DNA of 35,701 bases from Squalus acanthias. Taxonomy: Eukaryota. The translations under genes were made by a program, and so were the position numbers. The DNA lies in contig JASTWF010000333.1 of NCBI GenBank assembly GCA_030390025.1, positions 496,001 through 531,701 on the forward strand, in the 5' to 3' direction. Positions 2,345 through 35,701 of the stretch are shown piece after piece. Positions within the stretch are counted from its first letter, which is position 1. Each line of letters opens with the position of its first letter. The notes below the pieces were generated by a model. The model ran no database searches. It was not told the origin of the DNA and worked only from the letters and a program-made list of their open reading frames with translations.

Positions 2345-2381
<37 letters not shown>

Positions 2382-4113: not shown

Positions 4114-4148
<35 letters not shown>

Positions 4149-6020: not shown

Positions 6021-6055
<35 letters not shown>

Positions 6056-9000
6056 GAATCATCCTCACACACACACACACACCCTGAATCATCCTCACAC
6101 ACACACACACAACCTGAATCATCCTCACACACACCCTGAATCATCCTCACACACACACACCTGAATCATCCTCACACACACACACACCCTGAATCATCCT
6201 CACACACACAGATACACCCTGAATCACCCTCACACACACACACACCCTGAATCATCCTCACACACACAGACACACCCTGAATCACCCTCAAACACACACA
6301 CACCCTGAATCATCCTCACACACACACACACCCTGAATCATCCTCACACACACACACACCCTGAATCATCCTCACACACACACATACCCTGAATCATCCT
6401 CACACACACACACACCCTGAATCATCCTCACACAAAAACACACCCTGAATCATCCTCACACACACACACCCTGAATCATCCTCACACACACACACACCCA
6501 CTGAATCCTCCTCACACACACACCCTGAATCATCCTCACACACACACACACCCTGAATCATCCTCACACACACAGACACACCCTGAATCATCCTCACACA
6601 CACACACCCTGAATCATCCTCACACACACACACCCATGAATCATCCTCACACACACACTCACCCTGTATCATCCTCACACACACAGACACACCCTGAATC
6701 ATCCTCACACACACACACACCCTGAATCATCCTCACACACACACACCCTGAATCATCCTCACACACACACACACACCCTGAATCATCCTCACACACACAC
6801 ACACCCTGAATCATCCACACACACACAGACACACCCTGAATCATCCTCACACACACACACACCCTGAATCATCCTCACACACACACACACACACCCTGAA
6901 TCATCCTCACACACACACAAACACACCCTGAATAATCCTCTCACACACACACACCATGAATCATCCTCACACACACACCCTGAATCATCCTCACACACAC
7001 ACAAACACACCCTGAATCATCCTCACACACACACACCCTGAATCATCCACACACACACACACACCCTGAATCATCCTCACACCCACACACACACACTGAA
7101 TCACCCTCACACACACACACCCTGAATCATCCTCACACACACACACACCCACTGAATCCTCCTCACACACACACCCTGAATCATCCTCACACACACACAC
7201 ACCCTGAATCATCCTCACACACACACAGACACACCCTGAATCATCCTCACACACACAGACACACCCTGAATCATCCTCACACACACCCTGAATCATCCTC
7301 ACACACACACCCTGAATCATCCTCACACACACACACCCTGAATCATCCCCACACACACACACACACCCTGAATCATCCTCACACACACACACACACTGAA
7401 TCATCCTCACACACACACACACCCTGAATCATCCTCACACACACACACACACACACCCTGAATCATCCTCACACACACACAAACACACCCTGAATCATCC
7501 TCACACACACACACACCCTGAATCATCCTCACACACACACACCCTGAATCATCCTCACACACACACACACCCTGAATCATCCTCACACACACACACACCC
7601 TGAATCTTCCTCACACACACACCCTGAATCATCCTCACACACACACACACACACACCCTGAATCATCCTCACACACACACACCCTGAATCATCCTCACAC
7701 ACACACACACCCTGAGCATCAACACACACACACACCCTGAATCATCCTCACACACACACACACACCGTGAATCATCCTCACACACACACACACCCTGAAT
7801 CATCCTCACACACACACACACACCCTGAATCATCCTCACACGCACACATACCCTGAATCATCCTCACACAAAAACACACCCTGAATCATCCTCACACACA
7901 CACACACCCTGAATCATCCTCACACACACACACACCCTGAATCATCCTCACACACACACACCCTGAATCATCCTCACACACACACACCATGAATCATCCT
8001 CACACACACACTCACCCTGAATCATCCTCACACACACAACACACCCTGAATCATCCTCACACACACACACACCCTGAATCATCCTCACACACACACCCTG
8101 AATCATCCTCTCACACACACACACCCTGAATCATCCTCACACACACAGACACACCCTGAATCATCCTCACACACACACACACCCTGAATCATCCTCACAC
8201 ACACACACCCTGAATCATCCTCACACGCACACACCATGAATCATCCTCACACACACACTCACCCTGAATCATCCTCACACACACAGACACACCCTGAATC
8301 ATCCTCACACACACACACACCCTGAATCAACCTCACACACACACACCCTGAATCATCCTCACACACACACACACCCTGATTCATCCTCACACACACACAC
8401 TCACCCTGAATCATACACACACACACAGACACACCCTGAATCATCCTCACACACACACACACACCCTGAATCATCCTCACACACACACACTCACCCTGAA
8501 TCATACACACACACACAGACACACCCTGAATCATCCTCACACACACACACACACTGAATCATCCTCACACACACACACACCCTGAATCATCCTCACACAC
8601 ACACACACCCTGAATCATCCTCACACACACACACACACACCCTGAATCATCCTCACACACACACAAACACACCCTGAATCATCCTCACACACACACACAC
8701 CCTGAATCATCCTCACACACACACACACCCACTGAATCCTCCTCACACACACACCCTGAATCATCCTCACACACACACACACCATGAATCATCCTCACAC
8801 ACACACCCTGAATCATCCTCACACACACACAAACACACCCTGAATCATCCTCACACACACACACCCTGAATCATCCACACACACACACACACCCTGAATC
8901 ATCCTCACACCCACACACACACCCTGAATCACTCTCACACACACACACCCTGAATCATCCTCACACACACATACACACCCTGAATCATCCTCACACACAC

Positions 9001-12000
9001 ACACACACCGTGAATCATCCTCACACACACACACCCTGAATCATCCTCACACACTCACACCTTGAATCATCCTCACACACGCACACCCTGAATCATCCTC
9101 ACACACACATACACACCCTGAATCATCCTCACCCACACACACACACCCTGAATCATCCTCACACACACACACACACCCTGAATCATCCTCACACACACAC
9201 ACACACCCTGAATCATCCTCACACACACACACACCCTGAATCATCCTCACACACACACCCTGAATCACCCTCACACACACAAACCCTGAATCATCCTCAC
9301 ACACTCACACCTGAATCATCCTCACACACACACACACTGAATCATCCTCACACACACACACCCTGAATCATCCTCACACACACACACACCCTGAATCATC
9401 CTCACACACACACACACACACACACACACCCTGAATCATCCTCACACACACACACACCCTGAATCATCCTCACACACACACACACCTGAATCATCCTCAC
9501 ACACACACACACCCTGAATCATCCTCACACACACAGATACACCCTGAATCACCCTCACACACACACACACCCTGAATCAGCCTCACACACACACACACCC
9601 TGAATCATCCTCACACACACACACACACCCTGAATCACCCTCACACACACACACACCCTGAATCATCCTCACACACACACACACCCAGAATCATCCTCAC
9701 ACACACACACACCCTGAATCATCCTCACACACACACACACCCTGAATCATCCTCACACACACACACACCCTGAATCATCCTCACACAAAAACACACCCTG
9801 AATCATCCTCACACACACACACCCACTGAATCATCCTCACACACACACTCACCCTGTATCATCCTCACACACACAGACACACCCTGAATCATCCTCACAC
9901 ACACACACCCTGAATCATCCTCACACACACACACACACCCTGAATCATCCTCACACACACACACTCACCCTGAATCATCCACACACACACAGACACACCC
10001 TGAATCATCCTCACACACACACACACACTGAATCATCCTCACACACACACACACACACCCTGAATCATCCTCACACACACACACACCCTGAATCATCCTC
10101 ACACACACACACACCATGAATCATCCTCACACACACACACACACCCTGAATCATCCTCACACACACACACACACCATGAATCATCCTCACACACACACCC
10201 TGAATCATCCTCACACACACACAAACACACCCTGAATCATCCTCACACACACACACCCTGAATCATCCTCACACCCACACACACCCTGAATCATCCTCAC
10301 ACACACACACACTGAATCACCCTCACACACACACACACCCTGAATCACCCTCACACACACACACACCCTGAATCATCCTCACACACAACACACACCCTGA
10401 ATCTTCCTCACACACACACACACCCTGAATCATCCTCACACACAAACACACACCCTGAATCTTCCTCACACACACACACACCCTGAATCATCATCACACA
10501 CACACACACCCTGAATCATCCTCACACAAAAACACACCCTGAATCATCCTCACACACACACCCTGAATCATCCTCACACAAAAACACACCCTGAATCATC
10601 CTCACACACACACAGACACACCCTGAATCATCCTCACACACACAGACACACCCTGAATCATCCTCACACACACCCTGAATCATCCTCACACACACACCCT
10701 GAATCATCCTCACACACACACACCCTGAATCATCCTCACACACACACACACACCCTGAATCATCCTCACACACACACACACACTGAATCATCCTCACACA
10801 CACACACACACACCCTGAATCATCCTCACACACACACACACACACACCCTGAATCATCCTCACACACACACAAACACACCCTGAATCATCCCCACACACA
10901 CACACACCCTGAATCATCCCCACACACACACACCCTGAATCATCCCCACACACACACACCCTGAATCATCCCCACACACACACACACCCTGAATCATCCC
11001 CACACACACACACCCTGAATCATCCCACACACACACACACCCTGAATCATCCCCACACACACACACACCCTGAATCATCCCCACACACACACACACCCTG
11101 AATCATCCCCACACACACACACACCCTGAATCATCCCCACACACACACACACCCTGAATCATCCCCACACACACACACACCATGAATCATCCCACACACA
11201 CACACACACCATGAATCATCCCCACACACACACACACCCTGAATCATCCCACACACACACACACCCTGAATCATCCCACACACACACACACCATGAATCA
11301 TCCCCACACACACACACACCCTGAATCATCCCCACACACACACACCCTGAATCATCCCACACACACACACACACCTGAATCATCCTCACACACACAGACA
11401 CACCCTGAATCATCCTCACACACACACACACCCTGAATCATCCTCACACACACACACCCTGAATCATCCTCACACACACACACCATGAATCATCCTCACA
11501 CACACACTCACCCTGAATCATCCTCACACACACAGACACACCCTGAATCATCCTCACACACACACACACCCTGAATCAACCTCACACACACACACCCTGA
11601 ATCATCCTCACACACACACACACACCCTGATTCATCCTCACACACACACACTCACCCTGAATCATACACACACACACAGACACACCCTGAATCATCCTCA
11701 CACACACACACACACCCTGAATCATCCTCACACACACACACTCACCCTGAATCATACACACACACACAGACACACCCTGAATCATCCTCACACACACACA
11801 CACACTGAATCATCCTCACACACACACACACCCTGAATCATCCTCACACACACACACACCCTGAATCATCCTCACACACACACACACACACCCTGAATCA
11901 TCCTCACACACACACAACACACCCTGAATCATCCTCACACACACACACACCCTGAATCATCCTCACACACACACACACCCACTGAATCCTCCTCACACAC

Positions 12001-15000
12001 ACACCCTGAATCATCCTCACACACACACACACCATGAATCATCCTCACACACACACACCCTGAATCATCCTCACACACACACACACACCCTGAATCATCC
12101 TCACACACACACACCCTGAATCATCCACACACACACACACACCCTGAATCATCCTCACACACACACACACACACCCTGAATCACTCTCACACACACACAC
12201 CCTGAATCATCCTCACACACACATACACACCCTGAATCATCCTCACACACACACACACACACCGTGAATCATCCTCACACACACACACCCTGAATCATCC
12301 TCACACACTCACACCTTGAATCATCCTCACACACACACACCCTGAATCATCCTCACACACACATACACACCCTGAATCATCCTCACCCACACACACACAC
12401 CCTGAATCATCCTCACACACACACACACACCCTGAATCATCCTCACACACACACACACCCTGAATCATCCTCACACACACACACACCCTGAATCATCCTC
12501 ACACACACACCCTGAATCACCCTCACACACACAAACCCTGAATCATCCTCACACACTCACACCTTGAATCATCCTCACACACACACACACTGAATCATCC
12601 TCACACACACACACCCTGAATCATCCTCACACACACACACACACACACATACACACACCCTGAATCATCCTCACACACACACACACCCTGAATCATCCTC
12701 ACACACACACACACACACACACACACCCTGAATCATCCTCACACACACACACACACCCTGAATCATCCTCACACACACACACACCTGAATCATCCTCACA
12801 CACACACACACCCTGAATCATCCTCACACACACAGATACACCCTGAATCACCCTCACACACACACACACCCTGAATCAGCCTCACACACACACACACCCT
12901 GAATCATCCTCACACACACACACACACCCTGAATCACCCTCACACACACACACACCCTGAATCATCCTCACACACACACACACCCAGAATCATCCTCACA
13001 CACACACACACCCTGAATCATCCTCACACACACACACACCCTGAATCATCCTCACACACACACACACCCTGAATCATCCTCACACAAAAACACACCCTGA
13101 ATCATCCTCACACACACACACACCCTGAATCATCCTCACACACACACACCCACTGAATCATCCTCACACACACACTCACCCTGTATCATCCTCACACACA
13201 CAGACACACCCTGAATCATCCTCACACACACACACCCTGAATCATCCTCACACACACACACACACCCTGAATCATCCTCACACACACACACTCACCCTGA
13301 ATCATCCACACACACACAGACACACCCTGAATCATCCTCACACACACACACACACTGAATCATCCTCACACACACACACACACACCCTGAATCATCCTCA
13401 CACACACACACACCCTGAATCATCCTCACACACACACACACCATGAATCATCCTCACACACACACACACACCCTGAATCATCCTCACACACACACACACA
13501 CACCATGAATCATCCTCACACACACACACCCTGAATCATCCTCACACACACACAAACACACCCTGAATCATCCTCACACACACACACCCTGAATCATCCT
13601 CACACCCACACACACCCTGAATCATCCTCACACACACACACACTGAATCACCCTCACACACACACACACACCCTGAATCACCCTCACACACACACACACC
13701 CTGAATCATCCTCACACACAAACACACACCCTGAATCTTCCTCACACACACACACACCCTGAATCATCCTCACACACAAACACACACCCTGAATCTTCCT
13801 CACACACACACACACCCTGAATCATCATCACACACACACACACCCTGAATCATCCTCAAACAAAAACACACCCTGAATCATCCTCACACACACACACACC
13901 CACTGAATCCTCCTCACACACACACCCTGAATCATCCTCACACAAAAACACACCCTGAATCATCCTCACACACACACACACCCACTGAATCCTCCTCACA
14001 CACACACCCTGAATCATCCTCACACACACACACACCCTGAATCATCCTCACACACACACTCACCCTGAATCATCCTCACACACACAGACACACCCTGAAT
14101 CATCCTCACACACACACACCCTGAATCATCCTCACACACACACTCACCCTGAATCATCCTCACACACACAGACACACCCTGAATCATCCTCACACACAGA
14201 CACACCCTGAATCATCCTCACACACACACACCCACTGAATCCTCCTCACACACACACCCTGAATCATCCTCACACACACACACACCCTGAATCATCCTCA
14301 CACACACACTCACCCTGAATCATCCTCACACACACACACCCTGAATCATCCTCACACACACACACACCCTGAATCATCCTCACACACACACACACCATGA
14401 ATCATCCTCACACACACACTCACCCTGAATCATCCTCACACACACACACACACCCTGAATCATCCTCACACACACAGACACCCTGAATCATCCTCACACA
14501 CACAGACACACCCTGAATCATCCTCACACACACACACCCTGAATCATCCTCACACACACACACCCTGAATCATCCTCACACACACACACACACCCTGAAT
14601 CATCCTCACACACACACACCCTGAATCATCCTCACACACACACACACCCTGAATCATCCTCACACACACACACACACACCCTGAATCATCCTCACACACA
14701 CACAAACACACCCTGAATCATCCTCACACACACACACCCTGAATCATCCTCACACACACACACACCCTGAATCATCCTCACACACACACACACCATGAAT
14801 CATCCTCACACACACACCCTGAATCATCCTCACACACACACACACACACCCTGAATCACCCTCACACACACACACACACCCTGAATCACCCTCACACACA
14901 CACACACACCCTGAATCATCCTCACACACACACACACCCTGAATCATCCTCACACACACACACACCCTGAATCATCCTCACACACACACACCCTGAATCA

Positions 15001-15785
15001 TCCTCACACACACACACACACCCTGAATCATCCTCACACACACACACACACCCTGAATCATCCTCACACACACACACACACCCTGAATCATCCTCACACA
15101 CACACACACACCCTGAATCATCCTCACACACACACACACACGCTGAATCATCCTCACACACTCACACCTTGAATCACCCTCACACACACAAACCCTGAAT
15201 CATCCTCACACACTCACACCTTGATTCATCCTCACACACACACACACTGAATCATCCTCACACACACACACCCTGAATCATCCTCACACACACACACACA
15301 CACATACACACACCCTGAATCATCCTCACACACACACACACAACCTGAATCATCCTCACACACACCCTGAATCATCCTCACACACACACACCTGAATCAT
15401 CCTCACACAGACACACCCTGAATCATCCTCACACACACACACCCTGAATAATCCTCACACACACACCCTGAATCATCCTCACACACACACACACACCCTG
15501 AATCATCCTCACTCACACACACACAACCTGAATCATCCTCACACACACCCTGAATCATCCTCACACACACACCCTGAATCATCCTCACACACACACACAC
15601 ACCCTGAATCATCCTCACTCACACACACACAACCTGAATCATCCTCACACACACCTGAATCATCCTCACACAGACACACCCTGAATCATCCTCACACACA
15701 CACACCCTGAATCATCCTCACACACACACACAAACCCTGAATCATCCTCACACACACACACACACCCTGAATCGTCCTCACACAC
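1..15785. repeat. Tandem satellite, monomer CCTGAATCATCCT(CA)n, left array (roughly 550 units, continues beyond the window start)
   Basis: Continuous head-to-tail copies of a 13-bp core separated by variable CA tracts. Recurrent variants include CCATGA, TCACCCT, CAGACA, CTCACC and TCATCCCC. Unit count is estimated from length divided by ~29 bp. Confidence 0.99.
15781..15785. repeat. Left target-site duplication CACAC (partner at 25503-25507)
   Basis: CACAC precedes the LTR TG at 15786 and follows the LTR CA at 25502. Removing the provirus and one copy restores a normal TCCT(CA)7CCCTGA monomer. 3, 5 or 7 bp all fit; 4 and 6 bp do not. Confidence 0.75.
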
Positions 15786-16326
15786 TGTTGGGGAGAAAAT
15801 AAGATTCTCAGAGTCTGTGTAAAGTCCAAAAACACATAGTTTATTGACAAAGTACTTTGGGAGCAGGAGTCAAAAGGTCCCGTGACCTTTGTAACATCCT
15901 TCTCGTTTAACCTTTGTTCAGTACAGCTTATATTCAATATTTCTGGCTACATGCCATCATACATCGATTTTTGTCCAATTATATGGTATTACATTAATCA
16001 CCTGATTATATTTTGCCTTTATCTATATTTATTTGGCAACAATCATAAAAGCAGTTACATCTTGTTACGCCTTTTTGAGCATGGTCTAATCCCACAGTTT
16101 ACTACTGTATGTTATCTGTGATTGGCACCGTGCCTACGGTCTCTAGCTAACTTTGTAAAAGGCCTCTTTCAATACCGTTTATTAAACACCGAACCCTCCC
16201 TCAAAAATCTGTCTGGCAGCTGTAATTATATCTATTCCTTATCTCGTTTTGCAAAACCTTCACTGCACATGGTTTTATTGCAAATTGTGTAGAATTGAAT
16301 TTGACCATTTCAAATTAACTCTTTCA
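15786..16326 (-). repeat. 3' LTR (541 bp; minus strand TGAAAGAG...CCCCAACA)
   Basis: Direct repeat of 24065-24117 plus 25014-25502. Manual alignment gives 9 substitutions and one 1-bp indel. TG/CA termini, preceded by the PPT on the minus strand. Confidence 0.97.
15840..15845 (-). terminator. LTR polyadenylation signal AATAAA (3' LTR)
   Basis: Plus-strand TTTATT = minus-strand AATAAA, 54 nt from the LTR end, ~80 nt downstream of the TATA candidate and followed by TGTGTTTTT. Confidence 0.7.
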
Positions 16327-16499: not shown

Positions 16500-18076
16500 T
16501 TACATAAAAGTGCCATCTCCTTCCTCCTCCCATAGCAGCATCATGGGGGCCGCTTTTGCTACCCCCACAATTGATTGTTTACACACGCATTTTAATAGTA
16601 ATATCATAGAATACATAATCAAGATTACGATGAAGAACAAAATCAATCCTTGTGCTATTGATGTCCCCAACGTCCCTAGCCACCTAGTTGCCCAGCTCCA
16701 GAGGGTAAGTGCTGGAGGTTGCTTTAATTTCTTTACCTCCTGTGTATATGCTCAGCTAGATTAGTTATATTTTCTGAGTTGTCTGGAATGTAGGTACAAC
16801 ATTCTGACCCTATTATTGCGCACGTTCCTCCTTCTTTGGCCAGAAGGTAATCGAGGGCCATCCTATTCTGAAGGGTTACTGTTCTTAAAGCGACCATCTC
16901 CGCATTAACATGTCTCAAAGCTTCGGCTGTGTCGTTGGCTACTTGCTCTAACACCGCTGCTATGTTAATAGATTCTCTTGCTAACTTCCCCGCTCCATAC
17001 CAGGGGAAGGCAATAGTGAAGAACCTTTCGGTTTCTGTGATTGCTCTTTTTGTGCGTATAGTTAGGGTTTTAGTAATTCGGGTATAAGGGATTACATATC
17101 CCATGTAACATGACCCTGTCCAGGACTGGGGCAACCATGGATATGCCTTGTGGCCGCATATGAAATAGGTACCGTTATAGGCAGTGAGGGATTGTACTGT
17201 TTCGGGGATCCATTTCTGTATGAAACTACTGCCACTGTTGGTGAGATTCTTGAACGAAAGTCTGGAACCGTCAGCGTCTTTATTTAAGTTCCAAGACTGT
17301 GAGCAACGACTCCATCCCACCTCTGTTCCCTTTTCTCCTTTCTTTAGGTTTCTGATTATGCATATTGCTCCCTGGGGTCTACCTACCCCTGAGGTATTTG
17401 TTAATATCAAAGACGGGGGTGGTTGAGTACGATTGTATTTGGGCTGATACCACCCCTGGAAGGTGGTCAGGTTGTAACCTGACGATTGCCATTCCTTTTT
17501 ATCCCCACTCACATCCACCTTATAGGTCCCTCCTTTAGTTTGAGCTCCCATCCTGAGACCATTCCTGGAAGAGTTTTGATTTAAATACCATGCTGCCATC
17601 TCTGACTCATTAAACGGTACTGGTCTTAAAGGGATCCCTTCCTGTGCATGTATAGGAACGTGTGCACATACCCAACATTTAGATACATTACTTCGTTTTG
17701 CATAAGTATAAGACATATACAGAAATGTGTTTACATTTAATTCTCGTTTCAACCGTCTGTTTGATTTCTCTTTTTGATATTTCTGGGCTGTAGGACACCG
17801 TAAGTCAACTAGGCAAGGAGTATCCCCGCATGGGACAGTCCAATTACTCCTGCCAGTTATATAAGTTCTTGAACCTTTGGTAAGCCAGGCTGTAGTGTCG
17901 GTTTCTCTCTCCAGCTTCCACTCCTCTCCGTCTCTTTCATCAGGGGCTGGGCAGTAAATCGTATCTTGGTCACACAATCGTATTGGATCTTGTCTCCGAA
18001 GAAGGCACTTGTATTTCAACGAGGCAATGTCCGTAGCGCATATTGCGATTACACTAATACACATAAGCAATTTCAT
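16500..18076 (-). pseudogene. env: Retroviral envelope, gamma-type. Open for 447 aa (16733-18076); one frameshift at ~16743 detaches the membrane anchor and tail (16500-16742)
   Basis: Signal peptide [24 protein letters not shown] (aa107-111), CWVC (aa134-137), furin site RTKR (aa341-344), fusion peptide, [19 protein letters not shown] and CAIIGSECC. The shifted frame reads [55 protein letters not shown]...GDGTFM* to TAA at 16500-16502. Confidence 0.95.
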
Positions 18077-18153: not shown

Positions 18154-18183
18154 CCTGTGAGGGTGTAATAATACAATTGTTAG
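18154..18183 (-). promoter_or_regulatory. Putative env splice acceptor with branch point
   Basis: Minus strand CTAAC-AATTGTATTATTACACCCTCACAG|GAAG (AG at 18156-18155). No ATG lies between it and the env ATG at 18076. Confidence 0.65.
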
Positions 18184-18461
18184 TTTGGTTCTCCGATCAC
18201 AACCATTTGGATTTCCTCCCTTACTATCGGTCGGAGTTGATGCTGGCGGGACTGTTCCCATACATACTTCAGGATCCAACCTAAGGTGTATCCCATTAGA
18301 AGAATGCAGATAGTCCAAGCCAGCGCGTGTACCAGCGCCCATTCCCATTCTTTATACTGTCTGGCATACTCTTCACTTTCTGCGAACGGTATTTGTTCTG
18401 GTGTAGCCATTTCTATGTTAGTGAAGGGTTGTAGGCTTTTAACTGTGTCCAGTGCTTCCAT
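18180..18461 (-). CDS. Putative accessory small single-pass membrane protein (93 aa, or 76 aa from ATG 18410)
   Basis: Intact ORF filling most of the pol-env gap. Both ATGs have strong Kozak context (acgATGG, gaaATGG), and the second lies 2 nt after the pol stop. One 24-aa hydrophobic segment WALVHALAWTICILLMGYTLGWIL, with an acidic N-side and K/R on the C-side. Confidence 0.6.
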   Translation of the reverse strand: MEALDTVKSLQPFTNIEMATPEQIPFAESEEYARQYKEWEWALVHALAWTICILLMGYTLGWILKYVWEQSRQHQLRPIVREEIQMVVIGEPN

Positions 18462-21400
18462 CGTCCCATGCCCTTTATATCAATGCAAGCACACGTATCT
18501 CCGCTGATAAGGATTTGATATGGCCCTGACCATTTAGGGGCAAATGTGATTCCTGGCTTCCCTGGCAAGCTTTTAACCATGACCTTAGTCCCTGCTGGGG
18601 GAACGTATGGAAGCGCAGTTAATTCCAAATCCTTGTCTTTCTCTTCCTGCCTTTCCCGAGTTTGTCTCTTTTTAACTGATTACTTAATTCCAAAACGTAC
18701 CGGCGGAGTCTATCTTTTAAAGGTCCTACGTCCTCCCCTCCGGTTATTATACCGTGTGGAAGCCGCATTGCCCTTCCTGTCATTAGCTCATATGGTGATA
18801 AGCCTGTGGTCCGGTTTGGAGTTGCTCTTAATTTCATTAACACGGTTGGTAGCATATCTACCCATCGTTGATGCTTTTCCCCTAATGCCTTAGCTAAAGC
18901 TGTTTTCAGGGTTCGATTCATTCGCTCCACCATCCCGGAACTCTGAGGATGGTAGGGGATATGAAACTTCTGTTTAATGCCCAACCATGCGCACATCTGT
19001 TTAACTACGGCTCCTGTAAAGTGAGTGCCCTGATCTGAGTCAATTTGAATTGGTACTCCCCATCTGGGAATTATTTCCTCTGCCATTATTCGTGCCACGG
19101 TGGTGGCAGTACAATTCCGGGTGGGGAACGCTTCGACCCACCTTGTGAATTGGTCTATAATCACCAGGCAGTACCTGCGTCCCCTTGAGGTAGGTAGTGG
19201 CCCAGTGAAGTCTATCTGTATGTTCTCCCATGGTCCCCTTGGTCTCGGTTGGTGGGCCAATCGTATCTTAACTGGCCGTCCCGGATTATGTTGGGCACAC
19301 GTTATGCATCTCTGGCAATGTTTCGCCACATCTCTTCCCAACCTTGCCACCACCATTCCTTGCCTATTAATTCAATCATTGATCCCCGCCCGGTATGGGC
19401 ATTTCCATGATGTAATTCTAAGAGTAACTGCCTAATACAGGTAGGGGCTATCACCTTTCCCTCTTTTCGCCATATGGCCTCTCTATCCGGTCTCCCTCCT
19501 GCATGGTACTATTCCTGCCTTTCTCCTTCTGAGGTATCTTTGTGTAGTTTACTAATATTTATTTCTTCCACCTGAACACTGGCTACACTTTCTTCGATTG
19601 TCTCGTGTTCGAGAGCCTGTTGTGCAGCCAGGTCGGCTGCATGATTACCCTCCTGTTCTATACTCTGTATCTTTTGGTGCGCTTTTATTTTCATTACTGC
19701 TGCCTGCGTTGGGGCTTTTGCCGCTTCTAGGAGGTCTTCTATACGTTGTTGGTGCTTAATATGATCCCCTCCTGTTGTTACGAATCCCCTCCTTCCCCAA
19801 GCTGTCATGTAATCATGTACTACCCCAAACGCATATCTACTATCTGTGTAGATGTTTACAGTTCTGTCTTTAGCTAATTCCAGGGCTTTCGTTAGGGCTA
19901 CTATCTCTGCCACTTGTGCCGAGAGCCCCCCGTCTAACCTTCCAGATAACTCAGTTTCCAACTGGCCATTAACAACTGGCCACCCGGTTCGTGGTGTTCC
20001 GTTAATATACTTTCGGGATCCATCCACATAAAGGGTAAGCTGAGCTTCCTCCAGTGGTTCATCCTGTATTGGGCTACTATCAACTTCGTCATCTACATCC
20101 GCACATTCATGGGGTTCTCCCATCCCTAGAATACCTTCTGCTGGGTTCTCCCCGGTGTCCCGAACGATTTTTACTGATTCATCTTTGGGTATCAATACAG
20201 CTTCCCATCGTGCCCTACGCATGTTTGACACTGACCTCAATTTGTTGTTATTTAGCATGTCTACCAGCGTATGTTTGGTGTGCAGGGTGATATCCCCGGT
20301 CATTACCGTGGGTTCGCTCACCCTCACAGCCCATGCTGCACAATCTAATGCTGCTACACACCGTGACAGCCCTGCGGCCACTGGTGACTGCTGGGTGGAA
20401 TAGTATGCTACCGGTCGTTTTCTGTCTCCATGCTGCTGGGTAACTACTGCAGCATAGAATCCTCCCTCATTTTCACAGTGTATATGGAATGGCTTTTTCA
20501 TATCGGGTAGCCCGAGTCCCGGGGCTGTTATCAATGCCTGTTTTAATTTTCCATATGCTTCCTGTTGTTCATGTCCCCATTCAATGAGGGCGTTACCGGG
20601 GTTTCCCCCTTTTACGAGCCTCTGAATCGGTTCCGCTATCGCTGCGAAATTAGGTATAAAGTTCCTACTATAATTAAAAAGACCCAGGACTTTTCTGACT
20701 CCTCTGACTGAGACCGGTCGAGGCATTTCTTGTATTGCCTTTCGACGGTCACTAGGCATTGTCCTGACCCCCTGGGATATTTGTTGTCCCAAGTAAGTAA
20801 CAATACTCTGTCCAATCTGAGCCTTCCTGGGGTTTGCTTTAAATCCACCCTTTTCTAGTGCTTGTAGGATTACACCCAGGGCTGCTGCATGCCCCTTTTC
20901 ATCCTCTGATGCTATTAACAGATCATCTACATATTGTAATACAGTGCTACGGTACGGGGAAAGATCTATAGGTTCTAATAATGAACTCATTACCCGATGA
21001 AATATTGCTGGACTATTGTGGAATCCCTGTGGCAATCGGGTCCACGTGTACTGTTTATTTCCCACGGTGAAGGCGAACTTACTCTGGGACTCCGGGTCCA
21101 AGGGCAAGGACCAGAATCCGTTGGCTATGTCCAATACTGTGAATATTTTGTGTTCCATACTCAAACCGTTTAAAATAGTGGCCGGGCTGGCCACTATTGG
21201 GTGTAATTTTGGAGTTACCTTATTTAGGGCTGTGTAGTCAATAGTCAATCGATATGACCCATCTGGCTTCTTTACTGGCCACACAGGGGAATTGGTTGTA
21301 CTTTCTGTTGCCCTAATTATTCCTCTTTCCTCCAAATCCCGTACTATCTTTGACACAGCTTCCTGTGCTTCTGGCTTAATGGGATATTGTCTGTGTGATT

Positions 21401-21941
21401 TATGCTCCGGACCGGGAACTATGATAGGGTCCACCTCTGCCAACCCAGTATCCTGCTTTGAGACTGCCCACACTGTCTTGATGTTCTCACATATAGCCCC
21501 ATATTCCTGACTCCAGTCTCGTTTTAACGTTTTTGCACTCCCCACCTTAGCTAGGTGACCAAAAGGTTTTGTTAATCCCGTCTTGTTTCCGTCCGTTTGG
21601 GACCAAATTATTTTATTCAGTACCGGACTTACCAGGATATTATATTCTCTTAACAAATCTATTCCTAAAATAGTTCCTTCATTATTGGGGCATACATAAA
21701 ATTGCGCGGGGAGTAGTCGTCCCGCTATCTCTAATACCTACACTTCACTTTTATATGCAGAAATTCGTTCCCCTCCTAATCCTGATATATATATTTTGTG
21801 TTTGGTGACGGGAAGAGGCAGGTCCGTTATTGACACTGCTGCTCCCGTGTCTACCAGCATATCGCACTGCCGGCCCCCTATCAGCGCTGGCACATAGACA
21901 CGGTCGTCATGCTCCTCTCTTCCCGCGGGGGCCGCTGCTAG
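18413..21941 (-). pseudogene. pol: pro-pol polyprotein (protease, RT, tether, RNase H, integrase), in frame with gag, disrupted
   Basis: DTG at 21843-21851, ILGID, YVDD at 20922-20933, RNase H LYVDGS/AEIVA/YTDS/NHAAD, integrase HHGNAH..CITC, QIDFTG, DSDQG, VERMN and WSGPY. Lesions: TAG 21738-21740, TAG 19509-19511, frameshifts at ~19346 and ~18670. Confidence 0.96.
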
Positions 21942-21944
21942 TCA
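21938..21944 (-). promoter_or_regulatory. gag stop codon in UGA-CUAG readthrough context
   Basis: Minus strand AAC CGC TGA CTA GCA. The same frame continues LAAAPAGREEHDDRVYVPALIGGRQCDMLVDTGA into the protease. Confidence 0.8.
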
Positions 21945-23355
21945 GCGGTTATTTCCCTGGTCCTTGACAAGTTGCAAAAACCTCTGATATTCTTCGGGGC
22001 TCAGTCTAGGACCCTGATCTCCCGACCCCATATTTTCCCGCTTTGGACCCCAGCAGTCGTTGGTGCGGTGTCCCTGCTTGCCGCAATTACCGCAAGTCGG
22101 GATACTTTGTTTGGGACTCCTACACTCCTTAGCCATATGCCCCATCTTCCCACAATTGAAACACGCCCCTCTCTTTGGCTGGGGGTTTCTTTGCTGAACT
22201 CCGACTGCTCCCACCTTTTCTTGTTTAATAACCTTTCCTCGCTCTCCTTCTGTTCCATCTATCTGACAAGCCCATTTAACTACCGCATCGTAAGTGTCAG
22301 CCGTAACTACCCCCATTTTTAGTATCTTTTGGTGTTCTGAGGACAGACCATCTTTGTACATTTTTACAAATACAGGGTCGTCCCTTTGGGGGTTTTCCTG
22401 TCCCGAGGATTCCTGATATTGGTACCAGAGCCGTTCCCCATACGAATTTGAATTTTCCCCCTTCTTCTGTTGTATCTGCATTATTAAACCCCAATTTGGT
22501 GACGGGGCCCCCATCGTTTCCTGGACCCCTCTCTTGAACTCACTCCTCATTGTGTCCCGATTGGCTTGGGTTTCACCTGCTGTTGGACACCAAGTGCCAT
22601 TTCGGAAATTATCTGGTAATGCATTCCACTTGTCCCTTGGGCACTTGGCACGAACTATCTGGTGGACATCCTTTTCATGCATATTATGTATATCGTACAA
22701 TTCTTCCAATTTTTCCCAAAATTCTACATTTCATTTTCTTGGCTGTAATGTTCCTAAATCTTGATTTATCATTTGTTTTTCGGCGGGGGTAAATGCATGA
22801 TACCTAACTCTTGCGGCACGAGGACTACCTCCCACTGTCCGTATTACGGGTGCTGCCTTTTTAGTGATTATCTTTTCATCTTCGTCATCCCCTTCGTTAA
22901 AATTATCTACCGGGGGTGCCGAAGCTGATACAGCATATGAGGGGGTATGTCATCTTCCTCACCATATCTTCCAACCCCCGCGCCAGCACTCAAGCCTGTT
23001 GTTCATTCCAGCGTTCACTTTTATCCATTCTATATCCATCCTTTAACTTCTGTCCTGTTCTTAAGTATTCATTCTCCTGTTGTAGCTCTAAGATTTTCTC
23101 GTTGTGTCTCGTCAAACCCATATGTAGATCTCATACCTTCCTGGTCACTACGACCAGTTGGTGTACTAAGATCACTCCTGCTTTCTTAATCCTTTTCTGT
23201 TTCTGTCTCATCCACCACTCTCTCTGAGTGACAGGTGACTGGAACGGATCCCATCCGTCCTTAATCATCTTTTCCACCATACCCTTCCGGTCATCTGCAT
23301 AGAACCTAGTAAGGGACCCTTCTGGCCCCCAGTCTAGTCCTTTCCCCGATGCCAT
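21942..23355 (-). pseudogene. gag: Gag polyprotein with two CCHC zinc knuckles, disrupted
   Basis: MASGKGLDW start, coiled-coil-like EKILELQQENEYLR, ASAPP, MHR-like IQQKKGENSNSYGERL, and knuckles CFNCGKMGHMAKEC (22122-22163) and CGNCGKQGHRTNDC (22053-22094). In-frame TGA at 23131-23133, 22990-22992 and 22731-22733; frameshift at the G5 run 22941-22945. The start codon is inferred. Confidence 0.92.
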
Positions 23356-23815: not shown

Positions 23816-23888
23816 AGCTCAGGCTGAGTGTGCCTTATTCAACATCCACAGTCACCATTTACTCACTCTCTCTCTCTCTCTCACACCT

Positions 23889-23897
23889 ACTTACTGC
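23889..23897 (-). promoter_or_regulatory. Putative major splice donor
   Basis: Minus strand GCA|GTAAGT, ~150 nt downstream of the PBS and upstream of gag, followed by a (GA)n tract at 23866-23882. Confidence 0.6.
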
Positions 23898-24061: not shown

Positions 24062-24117
24062 AATTGTTGGGGAGAAAATAAGATTCTCAGAGTCTGTGTA
24101 AAGTCCAAAAACACATA

Positions 24118-25010
24118 GGGGTAAAAATTAGGTCGCGCCCCATTTGGGGCGCAAATATCGTCTGGACGCAAATATTAGCGCCTGGCGCTAATTATCGGCA
24201 CTGACTGGAAACTTCACTTTTACCGCCCCGGGAGGTGAGTGGAGCGCTAAATCAGGCGCTGCACACCTGTCTTAAGGCGCAAAGGCCGAGGAGTGAGGCG
24301 CTAACTCAGAGCGCTGGCGAAGCTCATGTAATGTCAGTCAGCAATGGAACACACACACAATGGCACGGGCCAGTTCTTAAAGGGGATGGTTAATCTTGCT
24401 TTCCATCCACATCCTGTTCATTGCAGCCTTGAATCTCGGCCTGGAGAGACTTGCACATCAAATGTGCTGGAAAGAACAATGGAGAGTACCAGGCAAAGAG
24501 CTCAGAGTGCAGCTCCCACAGTCTCTGCTAAATCGATACAAGGAATGGCAAATCAAAATGAACCTGCAAAGTGCTGCTCAGTACCCAAAACTCCTTCACA
24601 CAACGTTGAATCTCTCCAGAAGTCTCTCCCTCTCTCTCTCAGAATGCGTAGTTCAAAAATGCCACCAACAATAAAAGACAGGAAGAGGCCCCCTTTAAAT
24701 AGCGCCCCCCCCAGCCCCACAGCGATTGATAGCGTTCCAGTCTTCTGGTCGTTGGATGCGCCAGGCGGTAAGGCAGGGGGCGCCACTCAATTTCCGCTCC
24801 GGGGCGCCACAAGGGCGTTGCACCATGGAATGACGTCACAATCTGCGCGCGCAGGTGGTCGCAGCGGTAAGTTTTAGCGCCGCCACACAATCTCTAGTTA
24901 AGTTCCCGAGCGGCGCAAACATCGCTGCGCCCGGGCGTTAGCGGTTTTGCGCCCCATTAGCGCCCTCTTAAGGCGCTAACGGGAGGCGCAACCAACTGAA
25001 TTTTTACCCC
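24118..25010. mobile_element. Non-autonomous TIR DNA transposon (MITE), PIF/Harbinger-like, 893 bp
   Basis: Perfect 12-bp TIR GGGGTAAAAATT...AATTTTTACCCC. 3-bp TSD ATA (24115-24117, 25011-25013), with the empty site visible in the other LTR (ACACATAGTTT). GC-rich palindromic subterminal motifs and no transposase. The superfamily is inferred from the 3-bp TSD and GGG termini. Confidence 0.92.
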
Positions 25011-25102
25011 ATAGTTTATTGACAAAGTACTTTGGGAGCAGGAGCCAAAAGGTCCCGTGACCTTTGTAACATCCTTCTCGTTTAACCTTTGAGCAGTACA
25101 GC

Positions 25103-25108
25103 TTATAT
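25103..25108 (-). promoter_or_regulatory. Candidate LTR TATA box (AATATAAG); equivalent at 15928-15933
   Basis: Minus strand ATATAA ~80 nt upstream of AATAAA, as expected for a U3/R layout. CCAAT further upstream at 25296-25300. Confidence 0.5.
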
Positions 25109-25502
25109 TCAATATTTCTGGCTACATGCCATCATACATCGATTTTTGTCCAATTATATGGTATTACATTAATCACCTGATTATAGTTTGCCTTTACCTA
25201 TATTTATTTGGCAAAAATCATAAAAGCAGTTACATCTTGTTCCACCTTTTTGAGCATGGTCTAATCCCACAGTTTACTACTGTATGTTATCTGTGATTGG
25301 CACCGTGCCTACGGTCTCTAGCTAACTTTGTAAAAGGCCTCTTTCAATACCGTTTATTAAACACCGAACCCTCCCTCAAAAATCTGTCTGGCAGCTGTAA
25401 TTATATCTATTCCTTATCTCGTTTTGGAAAACCTTCACTGCACATGGTTTTATTGCAAATTGTGTAGAAATTGAATTTGACCATTTCAAATTAACTCTTT
25501 CA

Positions 25503-28500
25503 CACACACACACACCCTGAATCATCCTCACACACACACACACCCTGAATCATCTTCACACACACACACACACCCTGAATCATCCTTACACACACACACA
25601 CACCCTGAATCATCCTCACACACACACTGAATCATCCTCACACTCACACACACCCTGAATCATCCTCACAAACACACACCCTGAATCATCCCCCCACACA
25701 CACACACATCCTGAATCATCCTTACACACACACACACCCTGAATCAACCTCACACACACACACACCCTGAATCATCCTCACACACACACACACCCTGAAT
25801 CATCCTCACACACACACACCCTGAATCAACCTCACACACACACACACCCTGAATCACCCTCACACACACACACACCCTGAATCATCCTCACACACACACA
25901 CCCTGAATCATCCTCACACACACACACCCTGAATCATCCTCACACAGACACACCCTGAATCATCCTCACACACACACATACCCTGAATCACCCTCACACA
26001 CACACACACACACCCTGAATCATCCTCACACACACACACACACCCTGAATCATCCTCACACACACACACCCTGAATCATCCTCACACACACACACACCCT
26101 GAACCATCCTCACACACACACATACCCAGAATCATCCTCACACACACACACACCCTGAATCATCCTCACACACACACACACCCTGAATCATCCTCACACA
26201 CACACACACCCTGAATCCACCTCATCCTCACACACACCCCCTGAATCATCCTCACACACACACACACCCTTAAACATCCTCACACACACACACCCTGAAT
26301 CACCCTCAAACACACACACCCTGAATCATCCTCACACACACACCCTGAATCATCCTCACACACACACACACACACACACCCTGAATCATCCTCACACACA
26401 CACACCCTGAATCATCCTCACACACACACACACCTTGAATCACCCTCACACACACACACCCTGAATCATCCTCACACACACACACACACCCTGAATCATC
26501 CTCACACACACACACACCCTGAATCATCCTCACACACATACACACACCCTGAATCATCCTCACACACACACACACACACCCTGAATCATCCTCACACACA
26601 CACACCCTGAATCATCCTCACACACACACACACCCTGAATCATCCTCACACACACACACACCCTGAATCATACTCACACACACACACCCTGAATCATCCT
26701 CACACACACACACCCTGAATCATCCTCACACACACACACCCTGAATCATCCTCACACACACACACCCTGAAACATCCTCACACACACACACCCTGAATCA
26801 TCCTCACACACACACACACACCCTGAAACATCCTCACACACACACACCCTGAATCATCCACACACACACACACACACACCCTGAAACATCCTCACACACA
26901 CACCCTGAATCATCCTCACACACACACACACCCTGAAACATCCTCACACACACACCCTGAATCATCCTCACACACACACACACACCCTGAATCATCCTCA
27001 CACACACACCCTGAATCATCCTCACACACTCACACACCCTGAATCATCCTCACACACTCACACACCCTGAATCATCCTCACACACACACCCTGAATCATC
27101 CTCACATACACACACACACCCTGAAACATCCTCACACACACACACCCTGAATCATCCTCACACACACACCCTGAATCATCCTCACACACACACACACCCT
27201 GAATAATCCTCACACACACACCCTGAATCATCCTCACACACACATACCCTGAATGATCCTCACACACACAAACACACCCTGAATCATCCTCACACACACA
27301 CACACACACCCTGAATCATCCTCACACACACACACACACCCTGAATCATCCTCACACACACACACACCATGAATCATCCTCACACACACACACACACCCT
27401 GAATCATCCTCGCACACACACACACCATGAATCATCCTCACACACACACACACCCCCTGAATCATCCTCACACACACACACACACCATGAATCATCCTCA
27501 CACACACACACACACCCTGAATCATCCTCACACACACACACACACCATGAATCATCCTCACACACACACACACACACTGAATCATCCTCACACACACACA
27601 CACACCCTGAATCATCCTCACACACACACACACACCCTGAATCATCCTCACACACACACACACCATGAATCATCCTCACACACACACACACACACTGAAT
27701 CATCCTCACACACACACACACACCCTGAATCATCCTCACACACACACTGAATCATCCTCACACACACACACACACACCCTGAATCATCCTCATACACACA
27801 CTCTGAATCATCCTCACACACACACACACACACACCCTGAATCATCCTCACACACACACACACCCTGAATCATCCTCACACACACACACACACCCTGAAT
27901 CATCCTCACACACACACCCTGAATCATCCTCACACACACACACACACCCTGAATCATCCTCACACACACACACACCCTGAATCATCCTCACACACACACA
28001 CACACACCCAGATTCATCCTCACCCACACACACACACCCTGAATCATCCTCACACACACACCCTGAATCATCCTCACACACACACCCTGAATCATCCTCA
28101 CACACACACACACACCCTGAATCATCCTCACACACACACCCTGAATCATCCTCACACACACACACACACCCTGAATCATCCTCACACACACATACACACC
28201 CTGAATCATCCTCACACACACACCCTGAATCACCCTCACACACACACACACACACCCTGAATCATCCTGACACACACACACCCTGAATCATCCTGACACA
28301 CACACACCCTGAATCATCCTGATACACACACACCCTGAATCATCCTCACACACACACACCCTGAATCATCCTCACACACACACACACACCCTGAATCATC
28401 CTCACACACACACACACACACCCTGAATCATCCTCACACACACACACACACCCTGAATCATCCTCACACACACACACACACACCCTGAATCATCCTCACA

Positions 28501-31500
28501 CACACACACACACCATGAATCATCCTCACACACACACACACACTCTGAATCATCCTCACACACACACACACCCTGAATCATCCTCACACACACACACACC
28601 ATGAATCATCCTCACACATACACACACACACTGAATCATCCTCACACACACACACACCCTGAATCATCCTCACACACACACACACCCTGAATCATCCTCA
28701 CACACACACACACCCTGAATCATCCTCACACACACCCTGAATCACCCTCACACACACACACACCCACCCACTGAATCATCCTCACACACACACACCCTGA
28801 ATCATACTCACACACACACACTGAATCATCCTCACACACACACACACTCTGAATCATCCTCACACACACACACACACCCTGAATCATCCTCACACACACA
28901 CACACCCTGAATCATCCTCACACACACACACACACCCAGATTCATCCTCACCCACACACACACACCCTGAATCATCCTCACACACACACCCTGAATCAGC
29001 CTCACACACACACACACACCCTGAATCATCCTCACACACACACCCTGAATCACCCTCACACACACACACACCCTGAATCATCCTGACACACACACACCCT
29101 GAATCATCCTGACACACACACACCCTGAATCATCCTGACACACACACACCCTGAATCATCCTCACACACACACACCGTGAATCATCCTCACACACACACA
29201 CACACCCTGAATCATCCTCACACACAAACACACACCCTGAATCATAATGACACACACACACCCTGAATCATCATCACACACACACACCCTGAATCATCCT
29301 CACAAACACACACACACACTGAATCATCCTCACACACACACACACCCTGAATCATCTTCACACACACACACCCTGAATCATCCTGACACACACACACCCT
29401 GAATCATCCTCACACACACACACCCTGAATCATCCTCACACACACACACACACCCTGAATCATCCTCACACACACACACACACACTGAATCATCCTCACA
29501 CACACACACACACCCTGAATCATCCTCACACACACACACACCCTGAATCATCCTCACACACACACACCCTGAATCATCCTCACACACACACACCCTGAAT
29601 CATCCTCACACACACACACACCCTGAATCATCCTCACACACACACACTCACCCTGAATCATCCTCACACACACACACACCCTGAATCATCCTCACACACA
29701 CACACACACCCCGAATCATCCTCACACACACACACACACTGAATCATCCTCACACACACACCGTGAATCATCCTCACACACACACACACACCCTGAACCA
29801 TCCTCACACACACACACACCATGAATCATCCTCACACACACACACACACCCTGAATAATCCTCACACACACACACACCCTGAATCATCCTCACACACACA
29901 CCCTGAATCATCCTCACACACACACACAACCTGAATCATCCTCACACACACACCCTGAATCATCCTCACACACACACACACACCCTGAATCATCCTCACA
30001 CACACACCCTGAATCATCCTCACACACACACACACACCATGAATCATCCTCACACACACACACACACACCCTGAATCATCCTCACACACACACACACACC
30101 ATGAATCATCCTCACACACACACAAACACTCTGAATCATCCTCACACACACACACACCCTGAATCATCCTCACACACACACACACCATGAATCATCCTCA
30201 CACACACACACACACCCTGAATCATCCTCACACACACACACACCCTGAATCATCCTCACACACACACACACCCTGAATCATCCTCACACACACACACCCT
30301 GAATCATCCTCACACACACACACACACCATGAATCATCCTCACACACACACACACACACCCTGAATCATCCTCACACACACACCCTGAATCACCCTCACA
30401 CACACACACACACACACCCCCTGAATCATCCTCACACACACACACACACTCTGAATCATCCTCACACACACACACACCCTGAATCATCCTCACACACACC
30501 CTGAATCACCCTCACACACACACACACCCTGAATCATCCTCACACACTCACACACACCCTGAATCATCCTTACACACACACACACACACCCTGAATCATC
30601 CTCACACACACACTGAATCATCCTCACACACACACACACCCTGAATCATCCTCACACACACACACACCCTGAATCATCCTCACACACACGCACACCCTGA
30701 TTCATCCTCACACACACACACACCCTGATTCAGCCTCACACACACACACACCCTGAATCATCCTCACACACACACACACCCTGAATCATCCTCACACACA
30801 CGCACACCCTGATTCATCCTCACACACACACACACCCTGATTCAGCCTCACACACACACACACCCTGAATCATCCTCACACACACACACACCCTGAATCA
30901 TCCTCACACACACACACACCCTGAATCATCCTCACACACACACACACCCTGATTCAGCCTCACACACACACACACCCTGAATCATCCTCACACACACACA
31001 CACCCTGAATCATCCTCACACACACACACACCCTGATTCATCCTCACACACACACACCCTGATTCAGCCTCACACACACACACACACACTGAATCATCCT
31101 CACACACACACACCCTGAATCGTCCTCAAACACACACACACACACTGATTCATCCTGACACACACACACACCCTGAATCATCCTCACACACACACACACA
31201 CACTGAATCACCCTCACACACACACACCCTGAATAATCCTCACACACACACCCTGAATCATCCTCACACACACATACCCTGAATGATCCTCACACACACA
31301 AACACACCCTGAATCATCCTCACACACACACACACACACCCTGAATCATCCTCACACACACACACACACCCTGAATCATCCTCACACACACACACACCAT
31401 GAATCATCCTCACACACACACACACACCCTGAATCATCCTCACACACACACACACCATGAATCATCCTCACACACACACACACCCCCTGAATCATCCTCA

Positions 31501-34500: not shown

Positions 34501-35701
34501 CACACACACACCCTGAAACATCCTCACACACACACCCTGAATCATCCTCACACACACACACACACCCTGAATCATCCTCACACACACACCCTGAATCATC
34601 CTCACACACTCACACACCCTGAATCATCCTCACACACTCACACACCCTGAATCATCCTCACACACACACCCTGAATCATCCTCACATACACACACACACC
34701 CTGAAACATCCTCACACACACACACCCTGAATCATCCTCACACACACACCCTGAATCATCCTCACACACACACACACCCTGAATAATCCTCACACACACA
34801 CCCTGAATCATCCTCACACACACATACCCTGAATGATCCTCACACACACAAACACACCCTGAATCATCCTCACACACACACACACACACCCTGAATCATC
34901 CTCACACACACACACACACCCTGAATCATCCTCACACACACACACACCATGAATCATCCTCACACACACACACACACCCTGAATCATCCTCACACACACA
35001 CACACCATGAATCATCCTCACACACACACACACCCCCTGAATCATCCTCACACACACACACACACACCATGAATCATCCTCACACACACACACACCCCCT
35101 GAATCATCCTCACACACACACACACACCATGAATCATCCTCACACACACACACACACACTGAATCATCCTCACACACACACACACACCCTGAATCATCCT
35201 CACACACACACACACACCCTGAATCATCCTCACACACACACACACCATGAATCATCCTCACACACACACACACACACTGAATCATCCTCACACACACACA
35301 CACACCCTGAATCATCCTCACACACACACTGAATCATCCTCACACACACACACACACACCCTGAATCATCCTCATACACACACTCTGAATCATCCTCACA
35401 CACACACACACACACCCCTGAATCATCCTCACACACACACACACCCTGAATCATCCTCACACACACACACACACTCTGAATCATCCTCACACACACACAC
35501 ACCCTGAATCATCCTCACACACACCCTGAATCACCCTCACACACACACACACCCTGAATCATCCTCACACACCACACACACCCTGAATCATCCTTACACA
35601 CACACACACACACCCTGAATCATCCTCACACACACACTGAATCATCCTCACACACACACACACCCTGAATCATCCTCACACACACACACACCCTGAATCA
35701 T
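25503..35701. repeat. Tandem satellite CCTGAATCATCCT(CA)n, right array (roughly 350 units, continues beyond the window end)
   Basis: Same monomer and orientation as the left array. Characteristic variants are GAAACATCC, TCCTGACAC, CTCTGAATC, CCAGATTC and GATTCAGCC. Confidence 0.99.

Follow-up and report, generated by a model that had tools for sequence, protein, structure and literature searches.

A putative accessory membrane-protein gene between pol and env in endogenous retroviruses of Squalus acanthias, with a plausible stop-restart signal

Accessory genes are the means by which complex retroviruses act against host defences, and to our knowledge almost none are known from the oldest lineages of jawed vertebrates. 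HIV-1, a complex retrovirus, carries one just upstream of env: its product, Vpu, has about 80 residues and one N-out/C-in helix, with a tiny ectodomain, a long tail and the motifs DSGxxS and ExxxLV.

The snakehead retrovirus (SnRV) has small extra ORFs of 52, 94, 76 and 205 codons (PMC12193657). Cartilaginous fish hold many copies of endogenous retroviruses (ERVs) with a gamma-type env, and the main text of the same survey of anamniote ERVs describes epsilon-related elements without an accessory gene, although its supplements may list such ORFs (bioRxiv 10.1101/2021.11.23.469661). A different point of reference is the TURBS, which comprises a purine-UGGGA motif, a flanking stem, a linker of 12-23 nt and a stop within 20 nt (PMC11921876, PMC10275272); the fourth pair of its P1 stem is reported to be an invariant C-G, assuming that the pair is written in 5'-then-3' order (PMC11921876). 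A 2025 homology search on reinitiation elements covered RefSeq viruses, not ERVs, in its available text, and the string "retrovir" is absent from the main text of the reinitiation papers that were searched for that word.

The stretch of DNA analysed here (the window) comprises 35,701 nucleotides of contig JASTWF010000333.1, and consists of a CA-rich satellite and a single minus-strand provirus. The satellite (1-15785 and 25503-35701) is long, with units of roughly 26-30 nt. The provirus has the following parts.

24065..25502, minus strand: 5' LTR, carrying an 891-bp insertion (24119-25009)
24061-24044, minus strand: primer-binding site, adjoining the 5' LTR
21942..23355, minus strand: gag, interrupted in the window copy, with 2 zinc knuckles and a TGA-CTA end in frame with pro-pol
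18413..21941, minus strand: pro-pol, with stops and frameshifts in the window copy
16500..18076, minus strand: env, with its own ATG and a hydrophobic leader at 18076 (Pfam TLV_coat, E 7e-12)
15786..16326, minus strand: 3' LTR

Pfam identified zinc knuckles, RT, RNase H, integrase and the TLV-coat env, and the closest solved RT was that of MLV/XMRV (372 bits, with foamy RT at 225 bits). Gag, pol and env all carry stops or frameshifts in the window copy, the open pieces of pro-pol being 21737-19509, 19371-18619 and 18679-18413 (minus strand) and env being broken into two frames near 16740. The 891-bp insert that splits the 5' LTR has terminal inverted repeats, and looks like a non-autonomous DNA transposon younger than the provirus. 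The gag-pol junction at 21944-21939 (minus strand) reads TGA-CTA. This is a leaky context given for alphaviruses in a source whose UGA-using fish and frog retroviruses show other contexts (PMC13517186).

The ORF and its predicted product

The initial annotation had described an uninterrupted ORF in the pol-env gap with a strong-context ATG 2 nt past the pol stop, and the coordinates were all confirmed. The features concerned are these, A being the lineage of the window copy and B and G related lineages of the same genome.

18180..18410, minus strand: accessory ORF of 76 codons (ATG at 18410, TAA at 18182-18180), the object of the selection tests
18413..18415, minus strand: pol-frame stop TAG, 2 nt before the ORF start
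18270..18338, minus strand: predicted TM helix, residues 25-47 (hydropathy and AlphaFold)
18315..18329, minus strand: HALAW, the His of which is not conserved in relatives
18279..18293, minus strand: GYTLG, of which A, B and G all retain Thr42 and Gly44 while G has lost Gly40

The minus-strand frame is free of stops from 18479 to 18180. Starting at the ATG at 18461 it would encode 93 aa, and at the ATG at 18410, which has A at -3 and G at +4, it encodes 76 aa. The 93-aa form, which had been put forward beside the shorter one, turned out to be specific to A, the open frame being 99 codons in A, mostly 81 in B and 83 in G; the start at 18461 was rejected as the start of the gene because the frame is not open that far in B or G. 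An intact ORF in the window copy proves little by itself, since this is a single young copy whose 5' and 3' LTRs differ at 9 of 546 aligned bases.

The top 23-residue hydropathy window corresponds to residues 25-47 (mean KD 1.82) and is bounded by Trp22/Trp24 and Lys48/Tyr49/Trp51, and AlphaFold predicted one long helix (block pLDDT 90-95 across residues 21-50; pTM 0.41). On these predictions the ORF product is very probably a single-pass membrane protein. The flanks of the helix hold 2 basic and 5 acidic residues on the N-side and 3 basic and 1 acidic on the C-side, which bears out the charge pattern that had been taken to point to N-out/C-in, and the predicted protein is consistent with that topology. 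Basic and acidic residues in the C-terminal tail number 4/4 in the window copy, 2/6 (L031) and 4/6 in B, and 5/2 in G. Common to A, B and G are Trp22-Glu23-Trp24, Leu26, Leu30, Trp32, Cys35, Ile36, Thr42, Gly44, Lys48 and Trp51; the conserved residues of the helix showed no clustering on one face (p 0.76).

Relatives, selection and motif conservation

A protein search of the 3.7 Gb host genome gave 530 candidates, and 150 of the 530 were scored, all of them matching. The ORF starts 2 nt past the pol stop in lineages A, B and G, with protein identities of 44-100%. A and B share about 80% DNA identity, and among the 64 fetched loci with the ORF it is full length in 22/33 A and 22/31 B copies, the others being shortened (2 in A, 2 in B), extended (4 and 6) or devoid of the start (5 and 1). 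In lineage G the ORF has 77 codons, is 44-49% identical and keeps the 2-nt spacing; of 13 near-full-length matches, 9 were analysed.

For 29 x 6 copies of A and B, dN/dS was 0.20 in frame, compared with 0.67 and 1.17 when the frame was shifted, and integrase gave 0.07-0.08 for the same two lineages. With 18 x 21 intact copies the ratio was 0.18 (0.09-0.32) at kappa 1, 0.27 (0.16-0.43) at kappa 3 and 0.31 (0.19-0.48) at kappa 5, the intervals being 95% intervals from a bootstrap with transition bias. Within G, pN/pS was 0.37-0.45. A codon model over the whole tree of 39 copies gave an omega of 0.63 (2dlnL 10.3 against omega 1), which we read as reflecting decay after insertion, as this would fit the dN/dS of 0.64 within A; private and shared variants differ weakly (Fisher p 0.057). 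The indels between L001 and L031 measure 6 and 3 nt in the ORF, while the 103-nt spacer has three of 1 nt. Given both selection and frame conservation the ORF goes beyond chance, and that it represents a real gene under purifying selection is, as far as sequence comparison can tell, almost certain. ORF preservation and dN/dS below 1 among sister proviruses, the checks that the initial annotation had called for, were both found (0.18-0.31 for A against B). Its proposal of a small single-TM accessory gene in the pol-env gap that had not been described before is supported: sister proviruses keep the ORF, and purifying selection acts on it.

A profile built from 48 natural copies found its best match among 987,766 residues in family F (E 0.0013). 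The alignment is free of gaps from the first Met, with 13-16 of 54 identities (shuffle p at most 1e-5), and by this measure family F carries a remote homologue in the same pol-env position. In F1 (L233-L255) start and pol stop overlap as AUGnnUAA, and the majority of copies stop at one shared TAG, 14 of the 21 parsed copies ending after 48 codons; the sequence past this TAG still resembles the tail of the A/B/G protein. F2 (L188, L189, L256-L262) comprises about 60 near-identical young copies, many with open pol, in which the gap ORF is broken and the env surface motif of F1 is absent. In family E a hydrophobic ORF occupies the corresponding position; it is frameshifted and matches the profile weakly (E 0.02-0.1), and in the family E env of L112 a segment around CWVC is present as five tandem repeats. 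Family D (L091, L092, L097, L102-L108) has a candidate 57-codon hydrophobic ORF that overlaps the pol stop as TAATG, and an 87-codon variant of it, with no match to the ORF profile; its gap is T-rich and holds a splice-acceptor-like tract, its copies are very alike, and a splice-donor-like site follows its gag start codon. In family C and seven more distant families env comes straight after pol or there is no such ORF at the pol stop.

Several deletions recur among the copies. Five A copies (L030, L037-L040) share one of 133 bp that takes out the pol stop and the ORF start and joins the remaining ORF to upstream sequence in one 413-codon open frame. Another, shared by 37 copies (L263-L265 and 34 further places), runs from the integrase end to 18214 and removes most of the ORF. 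In about 55 copies of family G (L169, L202, L204, L221-L231) a deletion at a short repeated motif has joined ORF residues 1-46, in frame, with the second half of env; there are about four such copies for every undeleted one, and they do not form a single clade.

It could be argued that the ORF no longer works and is either a relic, for example of a former env leader, or a product of base composition, given that the gap ORF is wanting in family C and the seven more distant families, frameshifted in E and cut short at the shared stop in F1, that the 37 ORF-less deletion variants were amplified, and that the G copies join residues 1-46 to env. However, dN/dS is well below 1 both between and within lineages, A, B and G1 each have an env with a start and leader of its own, and the G fusion, besides sitting at a short repeated motif, requires at least 3 changes on the tree and has a distal env part in which pN is at or above pS among most close copies. 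We therefore consider a relic or by-product highly improbable; the ORF as an env leader was ruled out, the G fusion being a deletion.

HALAW (18329-18315) and GYTLG both lie in the single hydrophobic segment, where they had been reported. While residue 28 is His in 29/33 A copies (Gln in the other 4), it is Gln in 18/31 and Arg in 13/31 B copies, Arg in 9/9 G copies and Phe in F1, and His thus accounts for 29 of 73 A/B/G copies in all, with none in B or G. GxxxG is intact in A and B, but its first Gly (Gly40) is Cys in 9/9 G copies. With regard to the conservation of His, Trp and Gly, for which a check had been proposed, Trp32 and Gly44 are kept in A, B and G and His28 and Gly40 are not. Since they are lost in relatives, HxxxW and GxxxG do not go beyond chance.

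The His/Trp tetrads of M2 are found at the C-terminal end of its helix (PMC6679168), whereas residues 28 and 32 are at the N-terminal end of helix 25-47, opposite to M2. The two reservations with which HxxxW had been reported, that it lies at the N-terminal end of the helix and that so short a motif may arise by chance, were borne out by its position and by the relatives. HALAW is within the predicted helix in 29/33 A copies and A, B and G all retain Trp32, as an M2/BM2-like pH-gated proton channel working through His28 and Trp32 would have it; yet the gate suggested at first lacks its His in 31/31 B copies, 9/9 G copies and all F copies read, Arg is by established chemistry unable to shuttle protons near pH 6, and the motif and that of M2 occupy opposite helix ends. 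Such a channel appears extremely improbable, and the proton-channel reading is largely refuted by the relatives.

Homologues outside the host genome were sought in several collections. Pfam with the ORF protein gave nothing under E 0.08, and the best PDB profile match (E 0.25) was unrelated. A search of 5.8 billion proteins found 1 protein of the same family (P0001, 93%), with no homologue among 5263 candidates from longer proteins of that collection, and a HMMER scan of 1.84 billion representatives found P0001 only. Match scores in the ESM Atlas were 0.76, below lead level. Viral contigs yielded 0 distant loci out of 55 and metagenome contigs 6 out of 125; in the one of these that was examined, L158, the pol stop is not accompanied by a hydrophobic ORF. 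Outside the host genome these searches turned up no homologue with genomic context, although relatives of the integrase occur in other cartilaginous-fish, teleost and turtle genomes. The literature search, which had most subscription papers outside its scope, returned no prior description of such a gene, nor is one described in the available text of PMC4422223, PMC4977317, PMC8278194, PMC2717909, PMC8672886, PMC5972666 or PMC13517186. On the sequence evidence, the ORF is an accessory gene that belongs to a known kind but is itself undescribed, and its TURBS-like signal is plausible.

Routes of expression

The elements that bear on how the ORF might be expressed are as follows.

18580..18625, minus strand: candidate upstream acceptor (exon from 18594; prediction only)
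18471..18475, minus strand: AAGGG, 5' strand of the candidate P1 stem
18464..18469, minus strand: AUGGGA, candidate 18S rRNA-complementary motif 1 (as defined in PMC11921876)
18424..18428, minus strand: CCCUU, 3' strand of the candidate P1 stem, separated from the AUG by 13 nt
18154..18183, minus strand: candidate env branch point and acceptor (pyrimidine-rich, CAG; exon from 18154), downstream of the ORF

The TAA of the ORF lies inside the CTAAC (18183-18179) of the candidate env branch point, confirming an overlap noted earlier, and B and G have an acceptor similar to 18154. Given that this acceptor is downstream of the ORF, the predicted env RNA would not carry the ORF. The 18594 acceptor has the top pyrimidine score with a branch-point match in 18800-18080, and a pol-frame AUG is found at 18580, 55 codons ahead of the pol stop. 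No public run recorded as RNA was found to carry the sequence. Contigs of four public runs, the RNA status of which is a guess, covered the ORF and showed 4 joints, none of them GT-AG, the donor region near 23854-23896 having been skipped as repeats. One contig begins exactly at 18154, but contig depth and ends are not readable as transcripts. A loose end at 18214 in all four runs was considered as a splice and rejected, as the junction of the genomic deletion shared by the 37 copies is visible in the same contigs.

AUGGGA is placed 59 nt before the ORF AUG, and the purine before UGGGA, the linker of 12-13 nt and the stop within 20 nt all match published TURBS. UGGGA is present in 29/29 A, 27/28 B and 32/32 G loci (88/89 in total, a few loci being repeats of one place) and in 3/3 of family E, but in 0/35 of family C, which is without the gap ORF; it is likewise missing in F (0/4, and none among 28 parsed loci) and D (0/18), although both have an AUG at the pol stop. 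The full layout occurs at only one of the 200 AUGs of the provirus, that of the ORF, and at 82/89 A/B/G pol junctions (stem of 5-6 bp, linker of 12-13 nt in nearly all), compared with 55 of about 12,300 other AUGs and none of the pol junctions in C, D, E and F. Synonymous differences amount to 0.32 in the last 30 pol codons and 0.52 overall (p 0.0007), and codon usage gives the five free motif positions a chance of 0.008 per lineage, figures to be read with the layout rule and the 30-codon window having been chosen after the motif was noticed and with A, B and G being kin.

Over five pairs, 221/225 cells of the P1 stem are paired and nearly invariant, with no excess of covariation over shuffles (420-494 of 500 reach the observed values). 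Its fourth pair is G-C. The stem is in the minimum-energy fold of 3/4 copies tested and absent from that of the window copy, and folding z-scores of -0.1 to -1.7 are no better than shuffles. Rfam gave 0 matches over the provirus to E 5, and AUGGGA doubles as Met-Gly codons of integrase in a clade of relatives.

A second account would have the gene be real but made from a spliced RNA of its own through scanning, whether ordinary or leaky, with the conserved bases in the last part of pol serving as a splicing enhancer or some other RNA signal. G-rich runs can act as splicing enhancers, the start context is strong in A, B and G, and UGGGA is missing in F and D. Candidate acceptors also exist at 18594, 18503 and 18412, but the AG at 18414-18413 is absent in most B copies, where the pol stop is usually TAA, several AUGs lie between the 18594 acceptor and the ORF start, and the 2-nt spacing between stop and start is fixed in A, B and G. 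We regard scanning as rather unlikely.

Expression by stop-restart, judged by motif and layout, seems to us evenly poised between right and wrong. Ribosomes would reach the pol stop either by Gag-Pol readthrough on genomic RNA (at TGA-CTA, with low output) or via the 55-codon pol-frame reading on RNA spliced to 18594, the latter route being the sole one open in the window copy since pol is interrupted upstream. There they would be held by pairing with 18S rRNA and would restart 2 nt on, while env would be translated from a separate RNA spliced at 18154. More tentatively, a retrovirus lineage may have independently evolved a TURBS-type signal in the end of integrase that drives a new env-linked family of accessory membrane proteins. 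If true, the stop-restart strategy used by caliciviruses, influenza B and hapaviruses would have a retroviral counterpart, and if the signal works, retroviruses would join the short list of viruses with TURBS.

Function and comparison with known systems

Gap ORFs or hydrophobic candidates are found in 6/7 families with the YMSY..CWVC type of env, while a gap ORF at the pol stop is found in 0/7 families without it, and on the integrase tree F is far from A, B, G and E, with at least 3 changes of label. This distribution, together with the distant position of F, suggests that the gene moves with env. Given the N-out/C-in layout without a basic tail and the link to env type, a Vpu-like adaptor is favoured, in which the helix (Trp24, Leu26, Leu30, Trp32, Cys35, Ile36, Thr42, Gly44) would bind a host or viral membrane protein and alter its traffic. 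By analogy, an adaptor seems somewhat better than an even guess over a pore.

The main functional rival is a non-histidine viroporin, an oligomeric and weakly selective pore that would serve budding or the ion balance of Golgi or ER, as CM2/DM2 or rhabdovirus alpha-1/U5 do. Its 24-residue N-terminal part and 23-residue helix match CM2 in size and layout (PMC6679168), its aromatic-rich N-terminus is like that of rhabdovirus viroporin-like proteins (PMC4334499), and the other TURBS-driven ORFs of BM2 and hapavirus U5 are viroporins (PMC11921876). Residue 28 is polar (His, Gln, Arg) in A, B and G, but Phe in family F; and although Trp24, Cys35 and Thr42 lie near the helix angle of residue 28, the conserved residues do not form a helix face. 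The highly basic C-terminal domain of rhabdovirus class IA is also missing, and a BFVD fold search gave 0 matches at E 10. A pore of this kind is, in our estimate, unlikely.

Size, N-out/C-in layout and the 24-residue ectodomain also recall sORF2/FAST-like proteins (PMC11952523), so that a FAST-like cell-cell fusogen aiding spread from soma to germ line might be considered. The proteins start with MAT, MDA or MSN and have 2-3 basic residues in the 15 after the helix, however, the N-terminal Gly and polybasic patch being absent in A, B, G and F, and these viruses possess an env. The candidate of the unrelated family D begins with Met-Gly, one variant having a basic patch. A fusogen is thus very improbable.

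Returning to the adaptor, the reading that we prefer as a whole, and hold tentatively, is that of a selected accessory gene encoding a single-pass N-out/C-in protein, likely TURBS-made and likely a Vpu-like adaptor alongside Env, not a His-gated channel. With four lineages at 25-100% identity, the copies amount to a naturally occurring allelic series, by which one mechanism is already excluded, and surveys that call these ERVs simple may overlook ORFs of fewer than 80 codons.

Among described systems, the ORF resembles HIV-1 vpu in the size of its product, the predicted single N-out/C-in helix and the position of the gene before env. It differs in that its predicted protein has a 24-residue ectodomain and a 29-residue tail, and in that the ORF does not overlap env and precedes the predicted env acceptor, from which it would follow that it is not on a bicistronic RNA of the vpu/env type. 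No sequence similarity to Vpu was found (Pfam, PDB profile), and neither DSGxxS nor ExxxLV is kept across A, B and G; ExxxM[VI] is present in the A and B tails and not kept in G. An acidic dileucine-like signal was rejected, as it is lost in G.

Influenza B BM2 is likewise a small single-pass protein, with its translation beginning where the preceding gene stops (PMC11921876, PMC5972666, PMC6679168), and its TURBS has the same purine-UGGGA, complementary flanks and 12-23 nt linker (PMC11921876). Here, however, the His is not conserved and is found at the opposite helix end, the start follows the stop by 2 nt where BM2 has UAAUG, the upstream gene is retroviral pol, and the fourth stem pair is G-C. 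The class IA proteins of rhabdoviruses and hapavirus U5 share an aromatic N-terminal part and a central helix and N-out orientation, both predicted here (PMC4334499, PMC11921876), U5 also being expressed next to the glycoprotein gene in a manner like the TURBS-like one considered here (PMC11921876), but our ORF product has no highly basic tail and its gene comes before, not after, the glycoprotein gene. SnRV, compared by description, is a complex fish retrovirus with small accessory ORFs, and reads through UAG where the window element has UGA, as do SSSV and ZFERV (PMC13517186). The element as a whole also resembles the anamniote ERVs with a gamma-type env, with which it shares a class I-like pol and a gamma-type env TM subunit (bioRxiv 10.1101/2021.11.23.469661).
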